A DNA stretch of 62,435 nucleotides, filler included, from Globobulimina sp. (taxonomy: Eukaryota), in assembly GCA_003354225.1 (NCBI GenBank). It is 11 parts of 11 records of this genome, joined end to end, with 100 filler letters (N's around TTAATTAATTAA, not from the genome) between each part and the next. Parts side by side here need not be neighbours in the genome. Positions count along the whole stretch, not along the records: positions 34,145 to 39,729 come from PIVH01000502.1; 10 more parts are not named here. One strand, written 5' to 3'. Made by a program: the position numbers and the translations under genes. This document shows, in pieces, positions 1,779 to 39,829 of the stretch (position 1 is the first letter of the stretch; every line of letters starts with the position of its first letter). The notes below the pieces were generated by a model. It did not search any database. It saw only the letters and a list, made by a program, of their open reading frames with translations, and had not been told where the DNA came from.

Positions 1779-4700
1779 ATGTATCGAATGTACCAACAGG
1801 GAGTAACGCGTCTCGTACTGCGTTATTTCCGCCAGTATATATCCAATATTGACACTGATGTTCAATTATCTTTATGGGGCGGTGATGTTGTCTTAAATGA
1901 TTTAGATTTACGACTAGAAATTTTAAATAAGAAAATGGGAATTGAAGCGCCATTTTGTATCACCCGTGGCTTTATAAAGGAATTAAAAATGCATATACCA
2001 TGGCAGTCTATCACCACCACGCCCGTTGAAATCATACTGTCCTCCGTCGAAATAACATTATCAAACAATCATCACACATCATTTAATAATCTCAACAATA
2101 ACAACTCAAACACACCATATCTTCCTTCCTATCATCATTCAGCCAAAAAAAACAAAAATGGTTCAGATGGAGCTAACTCTGTGTCTATGGACCATACTTC
2201 AATCAATAATGATCAGTTAATATTGAATGAGGAGAATGAGGAGGAAATAAAACTAGATGATAACCGCAACAGTAACGAATCACTGGCCACTGGCTATATA
2301 AACAACTTATTAATGCGTATCAGTGCTAATGCATCCATCACAATCAATGATTTAACGCTCAAATATATCGACCATAATTGCAAATGTGAAGCTACATTAA
2401 CTATCCAACAATTTACGACTGTTGCAACCACATTAAACTGGCAGCCCAAGCCAGAGGTTTCTGGCTATGACATATTCCTAACTCCATGGAAATTATGCCA
2501 TAGGAGCTCAAGCTTTAAAAATGTCTCTTTATTTTTAGGTTTGACAATCTTATGTTAATGTATTGGTTATCTTATCCTTGCACTACATTGCATATAATAT
2601 TGCTTTAACACTGACAGATGTTTGTAAGCCGCAGGTTAAAGAAGAAGCATTATTCATCAACTTATCCATCGACATACGCTTAAAAGCCTATTTGCATTGG
2701 TTATGGCACGGCGGTCAAGCTCCAAAAATCGAGCAAACTGCGAGCTCCCAACAGACAAATAATAAACGACAACTATTATATACAACGTCTGCAATGTCCA
2801 ACCATTCAGGTCCTCCAAAAAGCAATGCAGTGTTAGAACATATCAGTGGTTCCTCCATGCAATCGGGAGGTGGCAGGTCTATACGCTCTGTGCGGTCCAT
2901 GCAGTCTGATGGTGGCATCTCCGTTCACAGCGTAGCCAGTAATACCAGCACTAAATCACATCATAGCAATACATCGGACAATGATGGCGGTAAAGGTGAC
3001 TTAGGTCCGGTGCTGATGATTGATATATTGGTGAACAAACATATTGACTTTAAATTGAGCTGTTACCAGTTATCGATGGCTGCAAAGATGTTGAGTAATT
3101 ACAGTGTGATCAGGAAACAGAAGCATGATAAGAAAAGTTCCAACAATCGACGGAGGTCTATGAGCAAACAATCTTCATTCGATAATAAGAAAACACATAA
3201 ACGGACAGTGTCTGCGCCTGCTGCGTCGATACCAGTTGCTTCAATTGGCGCAGTGGTGGACAGTCCGGCGTCGCAGGGATGGTTTTCATGGGTTGGCTCA
3301 TTTTTTTATGATTCGAATGAAGAGGAGGAAGATTGTGTGAATATTATTGACAGTCCATCAGATTGTATGTTGATCAAATTCCAATGTCCTTCGGTTACTT
3401 TTACATTGACAAATTCGAGGGAGACTGCGACGAATACGATGATGAATCCGCATAGAATGTATAAAAGGTATGGCAATCAATCGAGTTTGTATGGATCATC
3501 CAATGGTGGGTCGTCTAGATATCATCAAAGATATCAGAGGAATATGAAAAACTCGCAGCATTCACAAAATATATTGCCGACCATTACGCAGCATTCGCAT
3601 TCATACAGATCGCCACAGTATAAATCTAGCAGAGGGAGCTCTGTCAGTTCGCATAGATCTGGGTATTATTCACATACTCACTCGCAATTAGGACCGCAGT
3701 CTGTTCGGTAATTTTATATTTTTATCTGTTATTTGTTATGCTGTCACAAATAAATAACTCACACAGAGCCAAGACGTATGCAGTGACTTGTTATACATTT
3801 TCAGAGATAAAAATAACAGATATCGACATGCATTTATGTCTACCAATGATCCCAAAACATTTAAAAATGAGCAAACGAAGGAAATCATTGACTGGCAATG
3901 AATTAAATGGCATTGCATCAACCACCGTCATTGAAGATAATTTGAGCGAGGAACATTTCCATAGATCATTTATTTTAACAATTGCCACATTCACAGTGAT
4001 GGATTTTGTAGATAACCAGCCATTGCCTGTAATAGTTTGGGGTCATGAAAAAATCGTCAATGAGTCCTTTCCCTTTGTCTCCAAACCCACAGATTTCAGA
4101 GCGACCAATAAATCGCAAACGTTGCAAATTGAACCAACTGCAAATGAATACCATCCCGGATTTTTTCATGATCGCATTAAAGTGAAAGAAAATATCAATA
4201 ATATACCACCGCAATATTCTGAATTTGGTGTTTCTTCATTGACACCCAACCAATCCCCAGCAAATATAAACACACCATTCAAATATGGAAACAGCAGCAG
4301 CAGTGATTCAGAACTGAATTTTAACATAAATATGGATCAAATCTCGAGTGCACATAGCCGACCCTTTCAATTCCAAACTTCGCATTCACATTCACCACAA
4401 TCAGATGCCTATGACAGTAATCCATATTTATTCCAAATTGATTGTTCCTCGAACGCCATTTCATTTTATGTCTCTACCGGTTACCAATTCGACCCTGACG
4501 ATAACAAATCTGCTGAAAAAGAAGAACAACACAACACATACGCCACACATTTGCAAACTCCACACTCCAAACAGCAAAAAAAAGAGACCCCATCAGCTGC
4601 AGACAAATCCAGCAATAAAATATTAACTATGTCGACCGAAATCTCCATCGGATATTTATCCACTTTTGCCGACTTCAAATCGTCCGGCATTTCCCGCTTT

Positions 4701-5976: not shown

Positions 5977-7239
5977 ATGACCTCAAACATTAAAGTGGCT
6001 ACATTAAGCGCGGGGTTATCTGCATTACAATTGCATTTATACAAATCAATTGTGAGTCGGGATTTAGCGATCATAAACAATGAAGCAACAGTCAATGATT
6101 CAACATTATTAGGCACTATAATGCAATTAAAGCAGTGTTGTTGCCATCCATATTTGTTTGAAGGAATGGAACAAGAACAAAGAAAAAAAGAAAAAGCGCA
6201 ATCCTTACACCCAGAGAACCCCACCACACATCATTTAATTAAAAATTGTGGCAAATTATTTGTAATGGATAAATTATTAACAAAAATAATCTCAAATCAA
6301 CAAAAAGAAACTAAAACATTATTATGTTCACAAATTAATGGAATGTTTGAATGGTTTGAAGCATATTGCAATCACAGAGGAATAGCACATTATACCATAA
6401 CCAATGAATCTAATCAAAAAAATTTAAAGACGCAGAATATGCACGCTTCCGTTCTATTTTATCACACATCAAATCAACATCCATTCCATCAAACAATCAA
6501 AGCATTTTCGAATGTGAACACTGTGATATTTTATGACACTGATTGGACCGTACAGGATAAGCAAGAATGTATTGTTAAAACACTGCAGCAAAAATGTGAG
6601 GAAAAAGATGGATTTAATGCATATAATATTTGTACAAAGGATAGCTTGGAAGAGAAAATAATTAAAATGAAACAACAAAATGAATTAAATACAAAAGAAT
6701 TAAAATCATTGCTTAGATACAAAGCTACGAAGATATTAAATATTGCAACGGAATCAACATTGAATATGGAACAAAATATTGATGATATTTTAATGTGCCA
6801 TGAATATGATGGTTATGTGGTTGATGATGGCATGAAGGTAGAAAGAGAAAGGAAATATACTTTAAGTGATATTATAAATCATCCGGAGAATCAGGGAGTT
6901 ATTCGAGTATTTATAGCGTTTTTCATTGGAATGATAATAATCCCGTTAATTGTTGTCATTTGTTTGAAGAAATATGTCTGGAAATATTATTTATTGGATT
7001 GGTCGGATGAAGGAAAGGAAAATATAACCATTGTGGTTGGTGTTGGTGTTGCTCATATCATTGGTTTGATTTATGTTTGTTATGCATGGAGTGGTGAGGA
7101 TAGACAGCCCGCGCATATATTGGATGAAAAGAAGGAGGATCAAGTGGAGCATGGCGAGATTCCAAAGGAAAACACTCTGAGAGAAACTTGGCAAAATGTG
7201 CTAAGGCAAAGGAAAACAAACAAAACATCAAAGCTTTAA
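5977..7239 (+). CDS. Degenerate SNF2/ISWI helicase C-lobe fused to a VMA21-like two-TM domain
   Basis: MQLKQCCCHPYLFEG, CGKLFVMDKLL, NTVIFYDTDW and ICTKDSLEEKI resemble the SNF2 C-terminal motifs. FFIGMIIIPL...VAHIIGLIYVCYAW resembles VMA21. Confidence 0.6.
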   Translation: MTSNIKVATLSAGLSALQLHLYKSIVSRDLAIINNEATVNDSTLLGTIMQLKQCCCHPYLFEGMEQEQRKKEKAQSLHPENPTTHHLIKNCGKLFVMDKLLTKIISNQQKETKTLLCSQINGMFEWFEAYCNHRGIAHYTITNESNQKNLKTQNMHASVLFYHTSNQHPFHQTIKAFSNVNTVIFYDTDWTVQDKQECIVKTLQQKCEEKDGFNAYNICTKDSLEEKIIKMKQQNELNTKELKSLLRYKATKILNIATESTLNMEQNIDDILMCHEYDGYVVDDGMKVERERKYTLSDIINHPENQGVIRVFIAFFIGMIIIPLIVVICLKKYVWKYYLLDWSDEGKENITIVVGVGVAHIIGLIYVCYAWSGEDRQPAHILDEKKEDQVEHGEIPKENTLRETWQNVLRQRKTNKTSKL

Positions 7240-32377: not shown

Positions 32378-34044
32378 ATGGAAGAGAGATTGAAAGTGGT
32401 TGGTACAGCCTACAGGAATTGTTTTGGTATATTACCAACATCTATTCGGGATAAAATAATCTCATCAGCAACTTCAACCTCATTGTCAGGTTCAATTGTA
32501 GTTAAATTAAAATGGTCATCACCCGTTGAGAAAATATCATTTATTGGTTGTCGTGGTGATAAAACATGTGAAGAGGGATATATTCAAATTCCAATTAATT
32601 TATTGCAATGTATTAATTTATCTGAAAATATACTCGTCACTGTCACTTTTGTATCAGCCACAACATCATATTCGACAACGCAATTATACGAAACCATATC
32701 TTTGAAACCTTCCAGTTACGAGGACTGGGAAATAATACAATATAATTCGCAATACGTTGCAGATAACCTATTGAGGCAAATAGATATCATCAATGACAAG
32801 GATAGCTTTCCAATTTACATCGGCGATATTAAAGTTCATTTACAATCAAATATGAACTTTCGATGGGGGTTCCTCAAATTAGGAAATGACACCACCATCG
32901 ATATTATGCCACTAAAACGGTCGGCCAAAAAAAATAAAAAAATAACAACAAACGTTTTTGATGATAGTGATGATATTAATAGTGTTCAATCAAAAGATGG
33001 TATGACTTGTTTTTTTAATTTATTAATATTTTATTTTGCTTTTGCTTTTGCTTTATGATGACACAGCAGATGATGCAGAGGACAAAGAACAGGAAATAGA
33101 ACACGAATTGTGTCGTATTTTTAGGATTGGATCATTCAATAAATATGTCAATGATATCTTGCCAATACCACCAAATAATGTTGTCATAGCACCCAATGAT
33201 GAATTCTATGATGGCGATAATGTCATTGTCACATTTCGTAATAATAAATCACCAGAAACACCAGAATCCAAAGAAGCGCAAGAATCGCAGGGATATACTC
33301 GAATTTTGATGAGATTGATAAGTTGTGATTATATTGAAAATAATGAGATTGTGCTGCTATCACAATATGATATTAATTGTTATGGGATATCAACTGGCGA
33401 TTTTTGTGTGATTGAATCAATGAAATTAAATGAAAATTATAAACATATTTCACTAGTTTCGCCCTTAAACGAGTTAGAATTTATTACAATACATTTACAA
33501 CAAATATTAATTGTTTCATCAAACATAATCACTTCTGCTTCAGCCTCGAATCAGTTCAATGAATTTAACAATTTATATTTAGATAATACATTTAAACTGA
33601 ATTTAATTCAATATTTAAAACAAAATAAATATAATGATAATATATGCAATAACTCCATTATAACTTATAATGATTTATATTTTCATGTTAATTTAACAAC
33701 AAATGGATCCCAACTTAAATTACAATTGGATGATAATGAAATATTATACTTGATTGCTGTGGAGAATATAAGTGATAATTATATAAATATAATGGATAAC
33801 ATCAAACATTTTGCAATAATAAATCATAATTTATTACCCCCCGTCGATAACGAATTAATACAACTGATCAGTTCACATATTATGAATTGCAATGACAATA
33901 ATCATGTAATAATGTATGGCAATGATGCACGGATTCGACTGCAATATGTGGATGAAATAATGAATAAAGTCAATGCAAATTGCAATTATCCGATTTCATT
34001 TATTAAGATTGATTGTAATTTATATATAAATTCGCGAATTGCAG
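32378..34044 (+). CDS. PEX1: Peroxin-1 AAA ATPase, N-terminal part
   Basis: LKPSSYEDWEIIQYN...NLLRQI matches the PEX1-N domain; intron starting near 33000; truncated at the contig end. Confidence 0.7.
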
Positions 34045-34215
34045 NNNNNNNNNNNNNNNNNNNNNNNNNNNNNNNNNNNNNNNNNNNNTTAATTAATTAA
34101 NNNNNNNNNNNNNNNNNNNNNNNNNNNNNNNNNNNNNNNNNNNNTGTATTAATAGGAATTGTGAATTTTAATTTAATTTTTTAAACTTTTAAGTAATAAA
34201 TTTTACTTTAATCAG

Positions 34216-35255
34216 ATGGAAATTTTAATTTATCAAATATATTAAAATTATATTCCCCTTCAAATTCCTCAAAAATAAAAACTATAATCACAAAAAATGA
34301 TAAATTTGCTGTCAAAGTTGAATTAATTCTATTTTTCAGTGGATATGTTTCTGATGAATTTAGTATTTATGATCTTTATTATAAAATATTTAAATATTTA
34401 AATCCGCAAATTAAAAATATTGATCATTTAACAGTTTCGAAAGAATTAAAATCATTATTTGTAAATAAATGGAATGCTGTTAATATCAATAAATATATTA
34501 TTTCATTTATCAAACAAATATCAGACAGTTTAAGCTTATTAATGCCAACTGATCAATGTCAATCTTTATTGTTTCGCACAATTCGAATCTTTTGTGCTTA
34601 TAAAATATTTGATTTAACAAAGTTTTCTGAATTATTAGTCCCATTGGTTAAAAATGACAGAATTTCACCAACAACTTTATTTTCATGGATTAATAAAGGA
34701 ATTAAACATGTTTTTGATAGAAATAATTCGTATTATATGACATTTTCAGCCAATTTTATGCAATCTCAATTAACAATGAATACAAATTCATCCTTAGATC
34801 AAATATTATCGGCCACATTTTTAAATTATGACCAATCTGAATTTCATGACAAATCAAATAATGTATTACAAGTATTAAAAGATGCGCTAATTTCGGATAA
34901 TTTAAAAACAGTCACTGATAAACCTCGCCATTTCCCAAATAATTTCAATAAACAACATAAAAAGCCATGGAATAATTATAATAATAAGAATTCTGCCAAT
35001 AATAAACCAATAATTAAAGATAAATCAAATGAGACTCCCGAAGAAAAGAAAAATCGTAATTTAAATCCATATGCGGCAGAAAAAGTAATTCAGAATTTTT
35101 TGGCGAAAACAGGCACTTCGTTTTCGTTAAAAAGTAAATATTGTTGCTTTTATAATGCATATAATTACTGTCGATTAGGCGATAAATGTCGAAGAGCACA
35201 TATTTGCGTATTAGATGATAAAAAGCATCCATTATTGAATTGTGATAAAATTTAA
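34216..35255 (+). CDS. Gag-like ORF with C-terminal Cys/His zinc finger
   Basis: CCFYN...C....C...HIC......H....C. The frame is open upstream of ATG 34542 back to an AG acceptor at 34214-34215. Confidence 0.7.
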
Positions 35256-35561
35256 TGAATTATATTATTTGTATGAATATTCACTAATATTTAGTTATCA
35301 TTTTTTAATATTTGAATTACATTCGTATTATCTATTAATGTACAGATTATTTTAAAGAATTATATATAAATATTAATATCTATTCAATTTTAATAAATTT
35401 TGTTAATTTTCCAACATTTTTCCAACATTTAAATTCTGTTTATTTAAATTTAAATTTTTTAAACTTTTTATTGATGTAATTTATTATTATTTAATTTACA
35501 TTTGTTTGTTGTAAACATTATACCTTTAACCATTAATATCTTTTGTTCACACTTTGTCCAG

Positions 35562-37366
35562 TAATCGACCCCGAGATCTCTAAAAAAGTAAAAAATTTAC
35601 AAACATTACACGCCGAAGGTTATAAAAACAAACATCATTTCAATATAAATGCTTTTAGAAAATATTTAAAAAGTAAACAAAATGGAAAATTAGAAATCCA
35701 TTTTATTGAAAATGGGTTTCCTTTATGGAAATCCTTTCATAACAAAGGCTGGGAACCTTCAAATCTTTCAACTAAAATTAATAACTTAGTGTGCTCAAAA
35801 AGTGATATTATTGCGTTTATTGACAAATTATCTGAGGAGTGTCAACAAGGACAAATTGAGCCTATTAATTACGATCCAAAATATGTTTTAATGATATTTG
35901 GAACGCCAAAAAAAGATAAATTTGGTTTGTATACTAAAACGAGAGTCATTCGTAACGGCTCATTCCACGCAAAAGGAAAAACAGCAATAAATCAATGGAT
36001 TCGCAAAGAAAAATGTAATATGCGAAACCTCCCTAATTTGAAAACGTATACAAAATTACTAATAAACAATGAATATATGTCCTTAAGAGACTTAGCTGAT
36101 TTTTTCAGACAATTAAAATTGCCCGAAAGTGACGCAGATTTTGTTGGTTACTCCATTTTTGGCCTCCGGTTTAGGGATCGGAGCCAACCATATGGCGTTT
36201 CTTCAGCACCCGGCAATTCTCAGTATTTCTCAATCATTTTAGTATGGATCCTTAATAATTGTATATTAAATAATAAACAGCAACATTTAATTAATTCAGT
36301 CCTCGTTCATATCGATGACTTTGTGATTGCAGCTAAAACAAAATCTGATTGCAATCTATTAACAAATCTGTTTGATAATTTATTACGCGAATTGAAAGTA
36401 AAAGTATCGGAGCATAAATCTGTAAACAATGTAAGAAAAGGCATAATTTATGGCATTTATTGGAATTTAGCAAATAAAACATTAAAAATACCTGATTTGG
36501 CTTTAAAACAATTAAAATATTTCATATCATTAGTCATAAAATATAGAATCGCCACCGGCAGAGCCTTAGAATCGTTAACTGGCAAAATAATGCATTGGAG
36601 CCAGTTAAACAAAGCCACAAAAGCCTTAGCATATAGATCGTTGGCCTATATTCATAAAAATATTCGAAATGGCAGAATATCAAAATCAGAATGCATAATT
36701 TTACCAATTTCAGTGATTAATGACTTGCGTTTCTGGTTAAAATGGATTGATAATATTAAAATTGTGTCAATGTATACAATTTTAAACAATCCGTCAATTA
36801 ATGTATTTGCAGCAACTGACGCCTGCGAAATTGGTGCAGGATATGTTATGAATTCCATATTTGCAAAATATAAATTCAATAAAAATGATTTAAATTTATC
36901 TATAAATCAAAAGGAAGCACATTGTGTCCTTACACTTATTGAGACACATAAACACTTTTTAACTGGCAAATCATTAAAATTGTATATCGATAATGCATCC
37001 TGTTATTATTCAATGGTTAGGAAATGGTCTTCGTCCTATAATATGATGATATTTGTGTATGAATTATGTTTATTGATGATAAAATATAAAATTTATGTTC
37101 ATTTTGTATGGCTACCATCGGCTTTTAATTTCTTACCAGATCGTCTATCACGCGCTAAAATGTCTGAATTTTATGAATTGTGTAATACTTTCAATTTAAA
37201 ATTAGCCGAAATTAAACCAGATTATTTTGGTAGATATCAATTTGCAAATAACCCATTAATGAATTATGAAAACGATATGAATGAATATGTAAAGTTCATT
37301 GAATGGTTAAAACAACCCTTAAATATCAGAGCAATATCACCTTATAAATGTTATATGAAAATATAA
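35562..37366 (+). CDS. Reverse transcriptase-RNase H of DIRS type
   Basis: DLADFFRQL, QPYGVSSAP, HIDDF; RNase H motifs ATDAC, INQKE, IDN, N..PDRLSR. Confidence 0.92.
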
Positions 37367-37989
37367 TAACTGTCCATTTTAAGCATTCCCTAAAATGCTT
37401 TTTGTTTTTTATATTTTCGGTTTTGAGTCATAAAACTCATTAAATTTGATCTATTTTGTAATAAAATGTCTTATTTGCATCAATCTATGGTTAATTTCTT
37501 GAATTCGTGAATAATTTCTTAATTTAATCAGTCCATTATAATGTAAATGATTATACCAATATTACTCAATTTAACTTTTGTTATATATATAAAATGTATT
37601 ATTTATGTTCTATAAATTCAATTGTCATATTTACAAATTCTGAATTTAAAATGTTATATTGGCCTCCTCAGACCGTTCTGAATTCTCTCTAATTTGAATT
37701 AAGAGCGAATCTCTTTCTGTTTCTATGCTCATGTCACGCTCCCCTGATTCAGGGAAGCGAAGTGACTAAAACGTACTGAGCTAAATTTAAATTTTAAAAA
37801 AACTTCGAAACTGTAACGAAACCCGTTAAGCTTTAAACAATTACATTTAATTTTGTCTCTTGTTAATCGTTCTGGGCATTACTTTTTATCATTTTTGTCT
37901 TTCTCTTTTTATTTGTATTTTTTCAAACAATCAAATTCTTTTACAAACATTCAAATTTTAATTTTGTATAAAATCTTTATATTGTTTAG

Positions 37990-39206
37990 AATATTTTCGT
38001 TCTCGTTTGGCAAACAATAGAATTGCCCCAAAAGACCTAAAAAATACAAAACATATTCAAAAAATTAGATGTAGAGATAAAGTCCATGGTACAAAAATTC
38101 ATTACATCTCAAATCTGAGAAATTGGTCAAAATATTGCGCCCATATTGATGAAGATCCATTTGCTATGCCCTTAGACCCATTAACTATAACTTATTGGTT
38201 TTCTGAAAGAGCCCTCCAATTAGGAAGTGTTCAGTCAATTTATTCTTGGCAATCAACATTAATTTGGTTATGTAAATTATGTGGAGGTAATTATGAATGG
38301 AAAACAAATATAGATTTTGATGATTTTAAAAAAGGATTAAAAATAGAATATTGGAAAGAGGCGGCAAGCCGACTCCCTTTTGAACTAAAACACATAATAA
38401 AATACACAAAATACTACAAAGCATATGGCCAACATTTAGCGTCTATTGATATTAATATATTGGCAAAAGTATTAATTGCACAGATTTATTTTTGCTCAAT
38501 GTCGAGGCCCTGTGAATTATTAGTATGCAAATCTAGTAAAACTAAATTCGGAGTTAAACTTAAAAATATATTTCATATAAAGACTGCGCCTAACAAAAGA
38601 GATTGGTATTTTATTTTATATGTAGTCTCATTTAAAAATCAAAAATTTAAAAGTGTAGTAAAGAAAGTAATTATTGGGGACTCAAGATGTGGTAATAAAT
38701 ATATTAACTTTACACAGAGACACTGTCCGTGTAATTATATAAATCCCTATCTATTATTAAGTATATACTTAGAAAGAACATATAAATATTCACTCCAAAA
38801 CAAATATTTTACAATTAATGAAGATATAAATATATTTAGATTTAAAAATAATACAAATGCATTAACTACGGATTTATGTGAAATTGCAAAGGAAATCACA
38901 ATCATTTGCAATTTATCAGAACCAGAAAGATACACTTCCTATGCCTTTAGAATTGGAGGTTCCTCCCTTGCCAATAATAACCAGATACCACATCCTAAAA
39001 TACTTAAATATGTTGGCTGGAAACCCGCCAATTTACCACATGTATCTTATAGATATATGTGTTATACAGAAATACAGTTAGCAACGTTTATAAAAGAACT
39101 TGTCCATGGATACAATTATAAAAATAACTATGTAATAAAACATTATAATAACATTGGCGAAATATTCGATCCCTGGGCAAATTGTGTTGATTATAAAAAC
39201 TGGTAA
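37990..39206 (+). CDS. Tyrosine recombinase
   Basis: SRPCEL (R), SFKNQ (K), YAFRIGG (HxxR position), VGW (W), YRY (Y). Confidence 0.88.
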
Positions 39207-39829
39207 TGTTTCTATATAAATATTTTGATATAACTCCACATAGTGATTAATTTCCAATGTGTTTGTTTATCTGATTTGTTAATTTTGTTTAAAGAGCAGG
39301 AGTTTGTCATTAATTTTAGTGACTTAACGTTTTGTGTTTGGTTTTTATTTCCCTCTCACAAATTTTTATCTCCTCTGCGTTCTTTTTTAAATTCCTTTAA
39401 TCGGCCACAGGTTTTAAAAAGTAAAAATTTTGTCCTACGGGAAACGGGGTTTTATTTATATTTTATGATTTATTGTATCATAAAATAATTATAATTGATT
39501 GGTTTATTCCACCAATCAATTTGTTAATATGTTTAAATTTAATTTTAATTTATTTCTCCCGTTTGTTCTAATATAAATCAAGTGGTCATCTTCTTGACAT
39601 CAACTTGAAATATATTATATTAACATTTCATTTTGATCTAATTATTTTAAGTTTGGTGTTGTGTGCATTTGTCTATTCAAAATGCGTGTGTCTTTTTGAA
39701 GTCTTTACTAAAACTTTACTTCAACTTTTNNNNNNNNNNNNNNNNNNNNNNNNNNNNNNNNNNNNNNNNNNNNTTAATTAATTAANNNNNNNNNNNNNNN
39801 NNNNNNNNNNNNNNNNNNNNNNNNNNNNN

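Follow-up and report, generated by a model that had tools for sequence, protein, structure and literature searches.

The stretch of DNA analysed here (the window, 62,435 nucleotides (nt) from the Globobulimina sp. assembly GCA_003354225.1) is a chain of contigs of about 5.6 kb with N spacers between them. A retrotransposon occupies one of these contigs, G000:C502 (PIVH01000502.1, window 34145-39729), and because it fills this single contig, its neighbours in the window are unrelated to it. The host is eukaryotic, and its assembly is AT-rich and fragmented. Three open reading frames (ORFs) lie on the plus strand without any overlap: ORF1, gag-like by position (34212-35255, 347 amino acids (aa)), ORF2 for reverse transcriptase (RT) and ribonuclease H (RNase H) (35537-37366, 609 aa), and an ORF for a tyrosine recombinase (YR; 37962-39206, 414 aa). 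The first in-frame ATG comes late in each of them, at codon 111 of ORF1 (34542), codon 119 of RT (35891) and codon 69 of YR (38166). Each frame opens at an AG, ending at 34215, 35561 and 37989, and since the G is the first codon base in all three, all three would require a donor in phase 1. These coordinates confirm the original prediction, made from the window sequence alone, of three non-overlapping 'gag', RT-RNase H and YR frames that open at phase-1 AGs without an early ATG. The same prediction called the AGs pyrimidine-rich, which holds for the second (79% C+T at positions -22 to -4) and fails for the other two (58%, near the background of the T-rich spacers).

Read in this way, the plus strand of the contig holds the 3' end of a first intron up to acceptor 1 (CAG, 34145-34215, the contig beginning at its first base), the ORF1 exon (34216-35255), an AT-rich spacer of 306 nt (16% G+C) that ends in acceptor 2 (CAG, 35256-35561), the RT-RNase H exon (35562-37366), a spacer of 623 nt (25% G+C) that ends in acceptor 3 (TAG, 37367-37989), and the YR exon (37990-39206). 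ORF1 comprises a helical domain, a disordered linker and a C-terminal Cys/His zinc-finger region from 35142. Four Cys and two His are invariant in 32/32 copies, and the match to zf-CCCH (E 1e-4) is over the cut-off. The predicted model of ORF1 had a predicted local distance difference test score (pLDDT) of 80.5, and fold searches gave no informative match, only generic helical ones (best Z 6.2). ORF2 matches RVT_1 and RT_RNaseH. RVT_1 was found in 34/34 relatives and a methyltransferase family in 0/34 RT proteins. From acceptor to stop, the RT has 601 codons in the window copy, and nine of the closest intact copies have 601-602. The YR had no significant match in Pfam or among PDB sequences; its ESM Atlas feature scores were 0.97-0.98 to clusters in which 20-86% of the members carry Phage_integrase. 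Residues R172, K215, Y317-x-x-R320, W343 and Y355 (numbered from 37992), which we take from the recombinase consensus to be the catalytic ones, are invariant in 16/16 copies. No integrase or protease family was found in any ORF scanned. A Tyr-x-x-Arg (38940-38951) replaces the usual His-x-x-Arg of recombinases in 16/16 copies, in contrast to the Ngaro recombinase of Cafeteria burkhardae, for which the available passages of PMC8547959 give His-x-x-Arg.

Relatives of the element are numerous in the genome (at least 73 matches to RT and at least 103 to YR). Their RT is 39-92% identical to that of the window copy, a spread that marks the copies as old, and in a quick tree they fall into several well-supported clades. 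The fuller copies carry a fourth coding block, ORF0, upstream of ORF1; when complete, it starts with an ATG and extends for about 510-730 codons to a candidate splice donor. Conservation of ORF0 ends at E/Q-G or E-S and is followed by a short tail of variable length. The last conserved codon is GGT or AGT, with its GT in phase 1, in 21/21 copies; the encoded residue alternates between Gly and Ser with the GT constant, and GGT accounts for only 86/268 Gly codons in ORF0. The next-best column of phase-1 GTs in ORF0 is present in 6/15 copies. In a held-out check, a GT predicted from the ends of protein matches was present in 23/23 further copies, 20 of which had not been seen before, making a total of 44/44 ORF0 ends in the genome with a phase-1 GT. 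None of these 44 ends came from an intron-less genomic copy. The profile of the donor reads AAG|GT, and position +6 is a T in 90% of these 21 copies and in 19/23 held-out ones; when phase-1 GTs of ORF0 were ranked with leave-one-clade-out scoring, the donor ranked first in 15/21 copies. The protein itself gave no credible family in a domain scan. Its predicted model is poor (pLDDT 45.6), with a C-terminal part predicted to be helical at modest confidence, and the N-termini align poorly among copies.

The ORF0 and donor of the window copy lie outside the window. Another contig, G000:C5943 (locus L041), carries an ORF0 whose donor reads AAA|GTTAAT (L041:2389/2390). The first 119 nt of this contig match the last 119 nt of C502 at 100% identity, as against 87-92% for other copies over the same length. 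C5943 and C502 are likely to be parts of the same copy. In the first intron on C5943, some 15 nt past the donor, a different repeat starts (L041:2407-2567), which occurs on several other contigs at 78-83% identity and may explain why the two contigs are split. The original prediction had placed a leader exon beyond the contig edge, alternatively spliced to each ORF, and had proposed that fuller copies be searched for the donor and for terminal repeats. A phase-1 donor does lie beyond the edge, at the end of ORF0, and split repeats were resolved in one relative (G000:C17); what is missing from the window, though, is a whole gene and not a short leader.

We examined the acceptors in 82 cases chosen by eye from alignments (27 for ORF1, 29 for RT and 26 for YR), omitting ORF starts that were cut or broken (RT of L054, L063 and L066; ORF1 of L054 and L065). 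They comprise 42 CAG, 35 TAG, 5 AAG and no GAG, whereas 1997 internal phase-1 AGs used for comparison were 45% YAG and 14% GAG. The density of AGs is 0.97% just upstream of the acceptors versus 2.35% further up. The first residue after the acceptor varies (D, E, A, V or G) and the AG is constant. In the RT, the first ATG comes 65-128 codons into conserved sequence in 29/29 copies. In a test blind to the AGs, each clade was anchored on a conserved protein column and a 79-nt window was searched for AGs present in all members, or in all minus one; the phase-1 site already chosen by eye was recovered in 16/17 gene-by-clade groups. Two groups also gave a phase-2 AG within coding sequence, and the remaining group, which has indels, gave no site. 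In a held-out set of 24 YR copies, of which one near a contig end was excluded, a phase-1 AG stood no more than one codon away from its predicted place in 23/23 (18 exact), with 1 and 0 for the other phases. The conservation among paralogues that had been proposed as a check was thus found, and it supersedes the earlier estimate, based on one copy, that the phase agreement had a 1-in-9 probability of arising by chance. An out-of-frame ATG right after acceptor 1 opens a frame of nine codons (34216-34245); it is present in only 7/27 copies.

One scan of other assemblies yielded 19 loci, some of which group within the clades of this genome in the quick tree. The donor was present in 3/3 of those that include an ORF0 end, and 31 acceptors placed by eye in 17 loci were 29 YAG and 2 AAG; L100 adds two, and the counts omit the distant locus L106, in which the site could not be placed. 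A profile of the ORF0 end matched eight database proteins, and 8/8 stop at E/Q-G/S plus a short tail, although the L091 ORF0 is among them and so is not independent. Because these tails are derived from the intron, gene callers appear to cut such genes wrongly, and similar elements may be mis-annotated elsewhere. No fused protein was found among these eight, a weak test, since the collections appear to consist of gene calls on DNA; none among long relatives of the RT (three distant matches, all with PF00665 and two with integrase-type domain sets); and none among 1695 candidates from long relatives of the YR, where the collections are apparently DNA gene calls as well. In a distant GC-rich relative (L109:1-1620), the zinc finger stands at the end of an open frame that spans 540 aa or more, which is perhaps ORF0 and ORF1 unsplit, and the phase-1 CAG before RT is kept.

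The family has four coding blocks, conserved splice signals that match in phase, no start codons on the last three blocks, and introns retained in the genomic copies. The complete element would have the layout A1 - ORF0 - ORF1 - RT/RNase H - YR - B1 A2 B2, of which C502 would represent the 3' three-quarters. We consider it probable (roughly 80%) that the element makes one pre-mRNA with one donor and three alternative acceptors, which yields four proteins, and that the unspliced RNA is the template for replication. ORF0 would be the sole block with a start codon, and the host spliceosome would cut the one donor at its end and join it to one of the three in-frame acceptors. Both splicing itself and the use of the ORF0 donor by all three acceptors are inferred from sequence. 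The predicted products are ORF0-ORF1 of 843-1066 aa, ORF0-RT/RNase H of 1085-1319 aa and ORF0-YR of 928-1123 aa. Unspliced RNA would encode ORF0 alone and would also be reverse transcribed, since the first intron is kept in every copy examined. In eight full copies, the three joins were open in 23/24 cases, the last one being cut by a contig end; as open joins follow from the phases, they give sizes only. The introns would measure 220-518 nt for the first (19 fuller copies), 1.6-2.0 kb for RT and 3.5-4.3 kb for YR. Host chaperonin genes match in pieces, and candidate GT-AG introns that restore the frame were found at 8/8 gaps tried. A look for RNA data sets that contain a full-length relative listed none, which speaks neither for nor against splicing. 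In one listed run, of unrecorded kind and stored as contigs, 30/30 bins including the spacers were covered, and none of the 15 joints shown out of 17 had GT..AG ends.

More speculatively, ORF0 would play the part that Gag has in a Gag-Pol fusion and carry both RT and the recombinase into the particle, and the choice of acceptor would set the ratio of the proteins, with the nearest acceptor giving the most abundant product. We lean slightly towards a wider version, in which all working proteins are fusions to a shared ORF0 of 500-720 aa that acts as a common assembly tag. The zinc-finger protein, RT and recombinase would then be co-packaged with no need of a frameshift, an overlap or a protease. 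Their ratio would depend on which splice is made across introns as long as 4 kb, in a host whose own introns are very short, and only unspliced RNA would be copied.

Several observations weigh against alternative splicing from the ORF0 donor. No spliced molecule was seen. The RT and YR joins would skip one or two acceptors over 1.6-2.0 and 3.5-4.3 kb, whereas the candidate host introns are about 57-100 nt and are not unique solutions. The clade of the window copy has the weakest donor (AAA|GTTAAT), which ranked 10, 3, 1 and 3 among phase-1 GTs under leave-one-clade-out scoring, and the link between C5943 and C502 is an assembly overlap. In a family-wide alignment, the AG stands in one column in only 13/24, 20/29 and 23/26 copies, because the N-termini differ between clades. 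A test based on the onset of homology was noisy (phase 1 in 29/81, versus 1 and 3 for the other phases); it bled into non-coding DNA and was uninformative for the donor. The copies share ancestry, so that counts of copies overstate independence. A Met stands two codons past the acceptor in 8/26 YR copies, and in those lineages translation of YR could begin with no need of ORF0. Finally, a mini-exon, i.e. an ATG with a phase-1 donor, occurs at scattered positions 45-600 nt upstream in 9/28 RT and 9/26 YR copies.

These mini-exons fit an explanation in which only the join from ORF0 to ORF1 uses the ORF0 donor, producing one long gag, and RT and YR are joined to another phase-1 piece with a start codon, be it a short leader, a local mini-exon or a trans-spliced leader. 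The first intron is indeed the shortest, and since the ORF0 N-termini align poorly, an early donor specific to a clade could have been missed. However, ORF0 has no second conserved column of phase-1 GTs, the mini-exons are absent from about two-thirds of the copies and lie at unrelated distances, and in three copies the spacer before YR, at 58-78 nt, is too short to contain one. A second donor would also have to be in phase 1 by coincidence, and we regard this explanation as unlikely. The single phase of all acceptors would also fit if splicing were sequential, with a donor before each stop linking ORF1 to RT and RT to YR in one polyprotein, and Cys codons near the ORF1 end do provide a phase-1 GT in 74-81% of copies. 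These GTs belong to TGT/TGC codons and are not invariant, though, and neither ORF1 nor RT was found to end in a conserved donor: within their final 75 nt, the site most like a donor shifts in place and mostly scores below 5, compared with 5.1-12.3 for the ORF0 donors from which the matrix was made, and 4/19 RT ends have no GT at all. In both ORF1 and RT, conservation reaches as far as the stop codon, and splicing of this kind would cut into the zinc finger, which makes sequential splicing very unlikely.

An absence of splicing, with the downstream ORFs translated by re-initiation, from non-ATG starts or from internal ATGs and the AGs kept for protein reasons, would agree with the early Met in some YR copies and with the spacers kept in all genomic copies examined. 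Such a protein-level constraint fits poorly with an AG that is kept while residue 1 varies, its A being a free third position, with the lack of GAG and the depletion of AGs upstream, and with the first ATG of RT, which comes far into conserved sequence in every copy. It also leaves the GT at 44/44 ORF0 ends unexplained, and we find it hardly credible. Alternative splicing of one ORF0 exon to three acceptors is the explanation that we retain.

The ends of the element bear on its classification. The tail of G000:C17 was resolved as B1-A2-B2, with A of 98 nt 100% identical to the 5' end and B of 184 nt at 98.9%, and in L105 the tail has a 103-nt repeat that fits split direct repeats. C502 holds only B1 (39450-39610, plus strand, its start placed by analogy with the C17 tail) and the start of A2 (39611-39729, plus strand), which runs off the end of the contig. 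In most other contigs there is just one B-A joint, where the 3' block passes into the 5' block, and we read this as assembly collapse; others run from the 3' block into unrelated flanks. An alternative view, that the B-A joints mark copies lacking terminal repeats and arranged in tandem or as circles, was overturned by the resolved C17 tail, although some may be true tandem copies. Self-comparison of the full-length copies and of the window contig gave no long terminal inverted repeat. The split direct repeats in one relative and the lack of a methyltransferase point to an Ngaro-like element, of the Ngaro or VIPER structure type. The best explanation of these sequence features is a tyrosine-recombinase retrotransposon of the order DIRS that is Ngaro-like. 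All that the quick tree shows about the wider position of the family is that it is distinct from the outgroups used.

Minor features of the ends were also noted. In the 3' tail, a conserved 7-bp stem (39442-39449 with 39556-39564) closes a structured block. Both partners of one pair in the stem are changed, and several paired changes of this kind occur in an inner hairpin, as compared in eight copies. The block is possibly a replication or recombination signal, and Rfam gave no matches in seven loci. A short C-rich spacer lies between A2 and B2 in both resolved tails (L051 ~6654-6672, oriented; L105 ~3350-3385). The 5' host flank in L031 (~225-245, oriented) resembles the element 3' end (window 39602-39611), and a T follows the 3' end in 11/11 joints listed, both of which would be expected if the recombinase inserts the element at look-alike sites.

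Splicing is well known in retroelements: gypsy env and Ogre are cases of spliced subgenomic RNAs made by retrotransposons with long terminal repeats (LTR retrotransposons), and retroviruses splice one donor to several acceptors. DIRS-order elements have no protease like that of LTR elements, and we know of little testing of how they express RT and recombinase. The original Ngaro paper reportedly described spliceosomal introns in some YR elements. The spliced LTR elements are of the integrase type and have one intron and one alternative product, unlike the three acceptors fed by one coding exon here. Foamy virus, as described in part of PMC3705302, has a similar single 5' splice site, alternative acceptors for the RT message and unspliced RNA as the genome; its Pol, in contrast, starts at a codon of its own and includes nothing of Gag, whereas here a long upstream coding exon would be fused to each product. 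The short gag RNA of plant Ty1/Copia (abstract of PMC5580714) is a further case in which splicing by the host determines how much structural protein is made relative to catalytic protein.

Among DIRS-order elements, the available passages of PMC8547959 show the Ngaro of Cafeteria burkhardae to share RT-RNase H without methyltransferase, the recombinase in last place, the A1-[ORFs]-B1A2B2 structure and non-overlapping ORFs; it has three coding blocks and not four, and here the last three lack start codons and stand at phase-matched acceptors. VIPER/TATE elements of kinetoplastids share split direct repeats and the lack of a methyltransferase (passages of PMC6681497 and PMC3266345), and the passages of PMC6681497 do not mention 'intron'. 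DIRS1-like and PAT-like elements have RT-RNase H and a tyrosine recombinase, and PAT also has split direct repeats (passages of PMC3266345). The methyltransferase after RNase H that marks both groups was not found in our family. Nor did we find the inverted terminal repeats, the internal complementary regions or the frequent overlap of pol with YR described there for DIRS1-like elements. The contrast that the original prediction drew with overlapping ORFs as usual in DIRS/Ngaro elements was too broad, since according to part of PMC3266345 overlaps between ORFs are not usual in Ngaro and VIPER elements. The string 'splic' has no match in the available passages of PMC3783388, PMC3266345 and PMC8547959 and one in those of PMC6681497, which concerns host trans-splicing. 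Our literature search, outside subscription papers and Repbase, found nothing on such a layout. A single coding exon that is joined to any of three alternative last exons would be a new solution to the Gag-Pol problem. The family offers exact, testable junctions, and raises the question of how unspliced RNA leaves the nucleus and is selected as the template if all messages share the 5' exon.

In the neighbouring contig (32321-34044), two overlapping open frames resemble one host gene with a short GT-AG intron at about 33000-33070.

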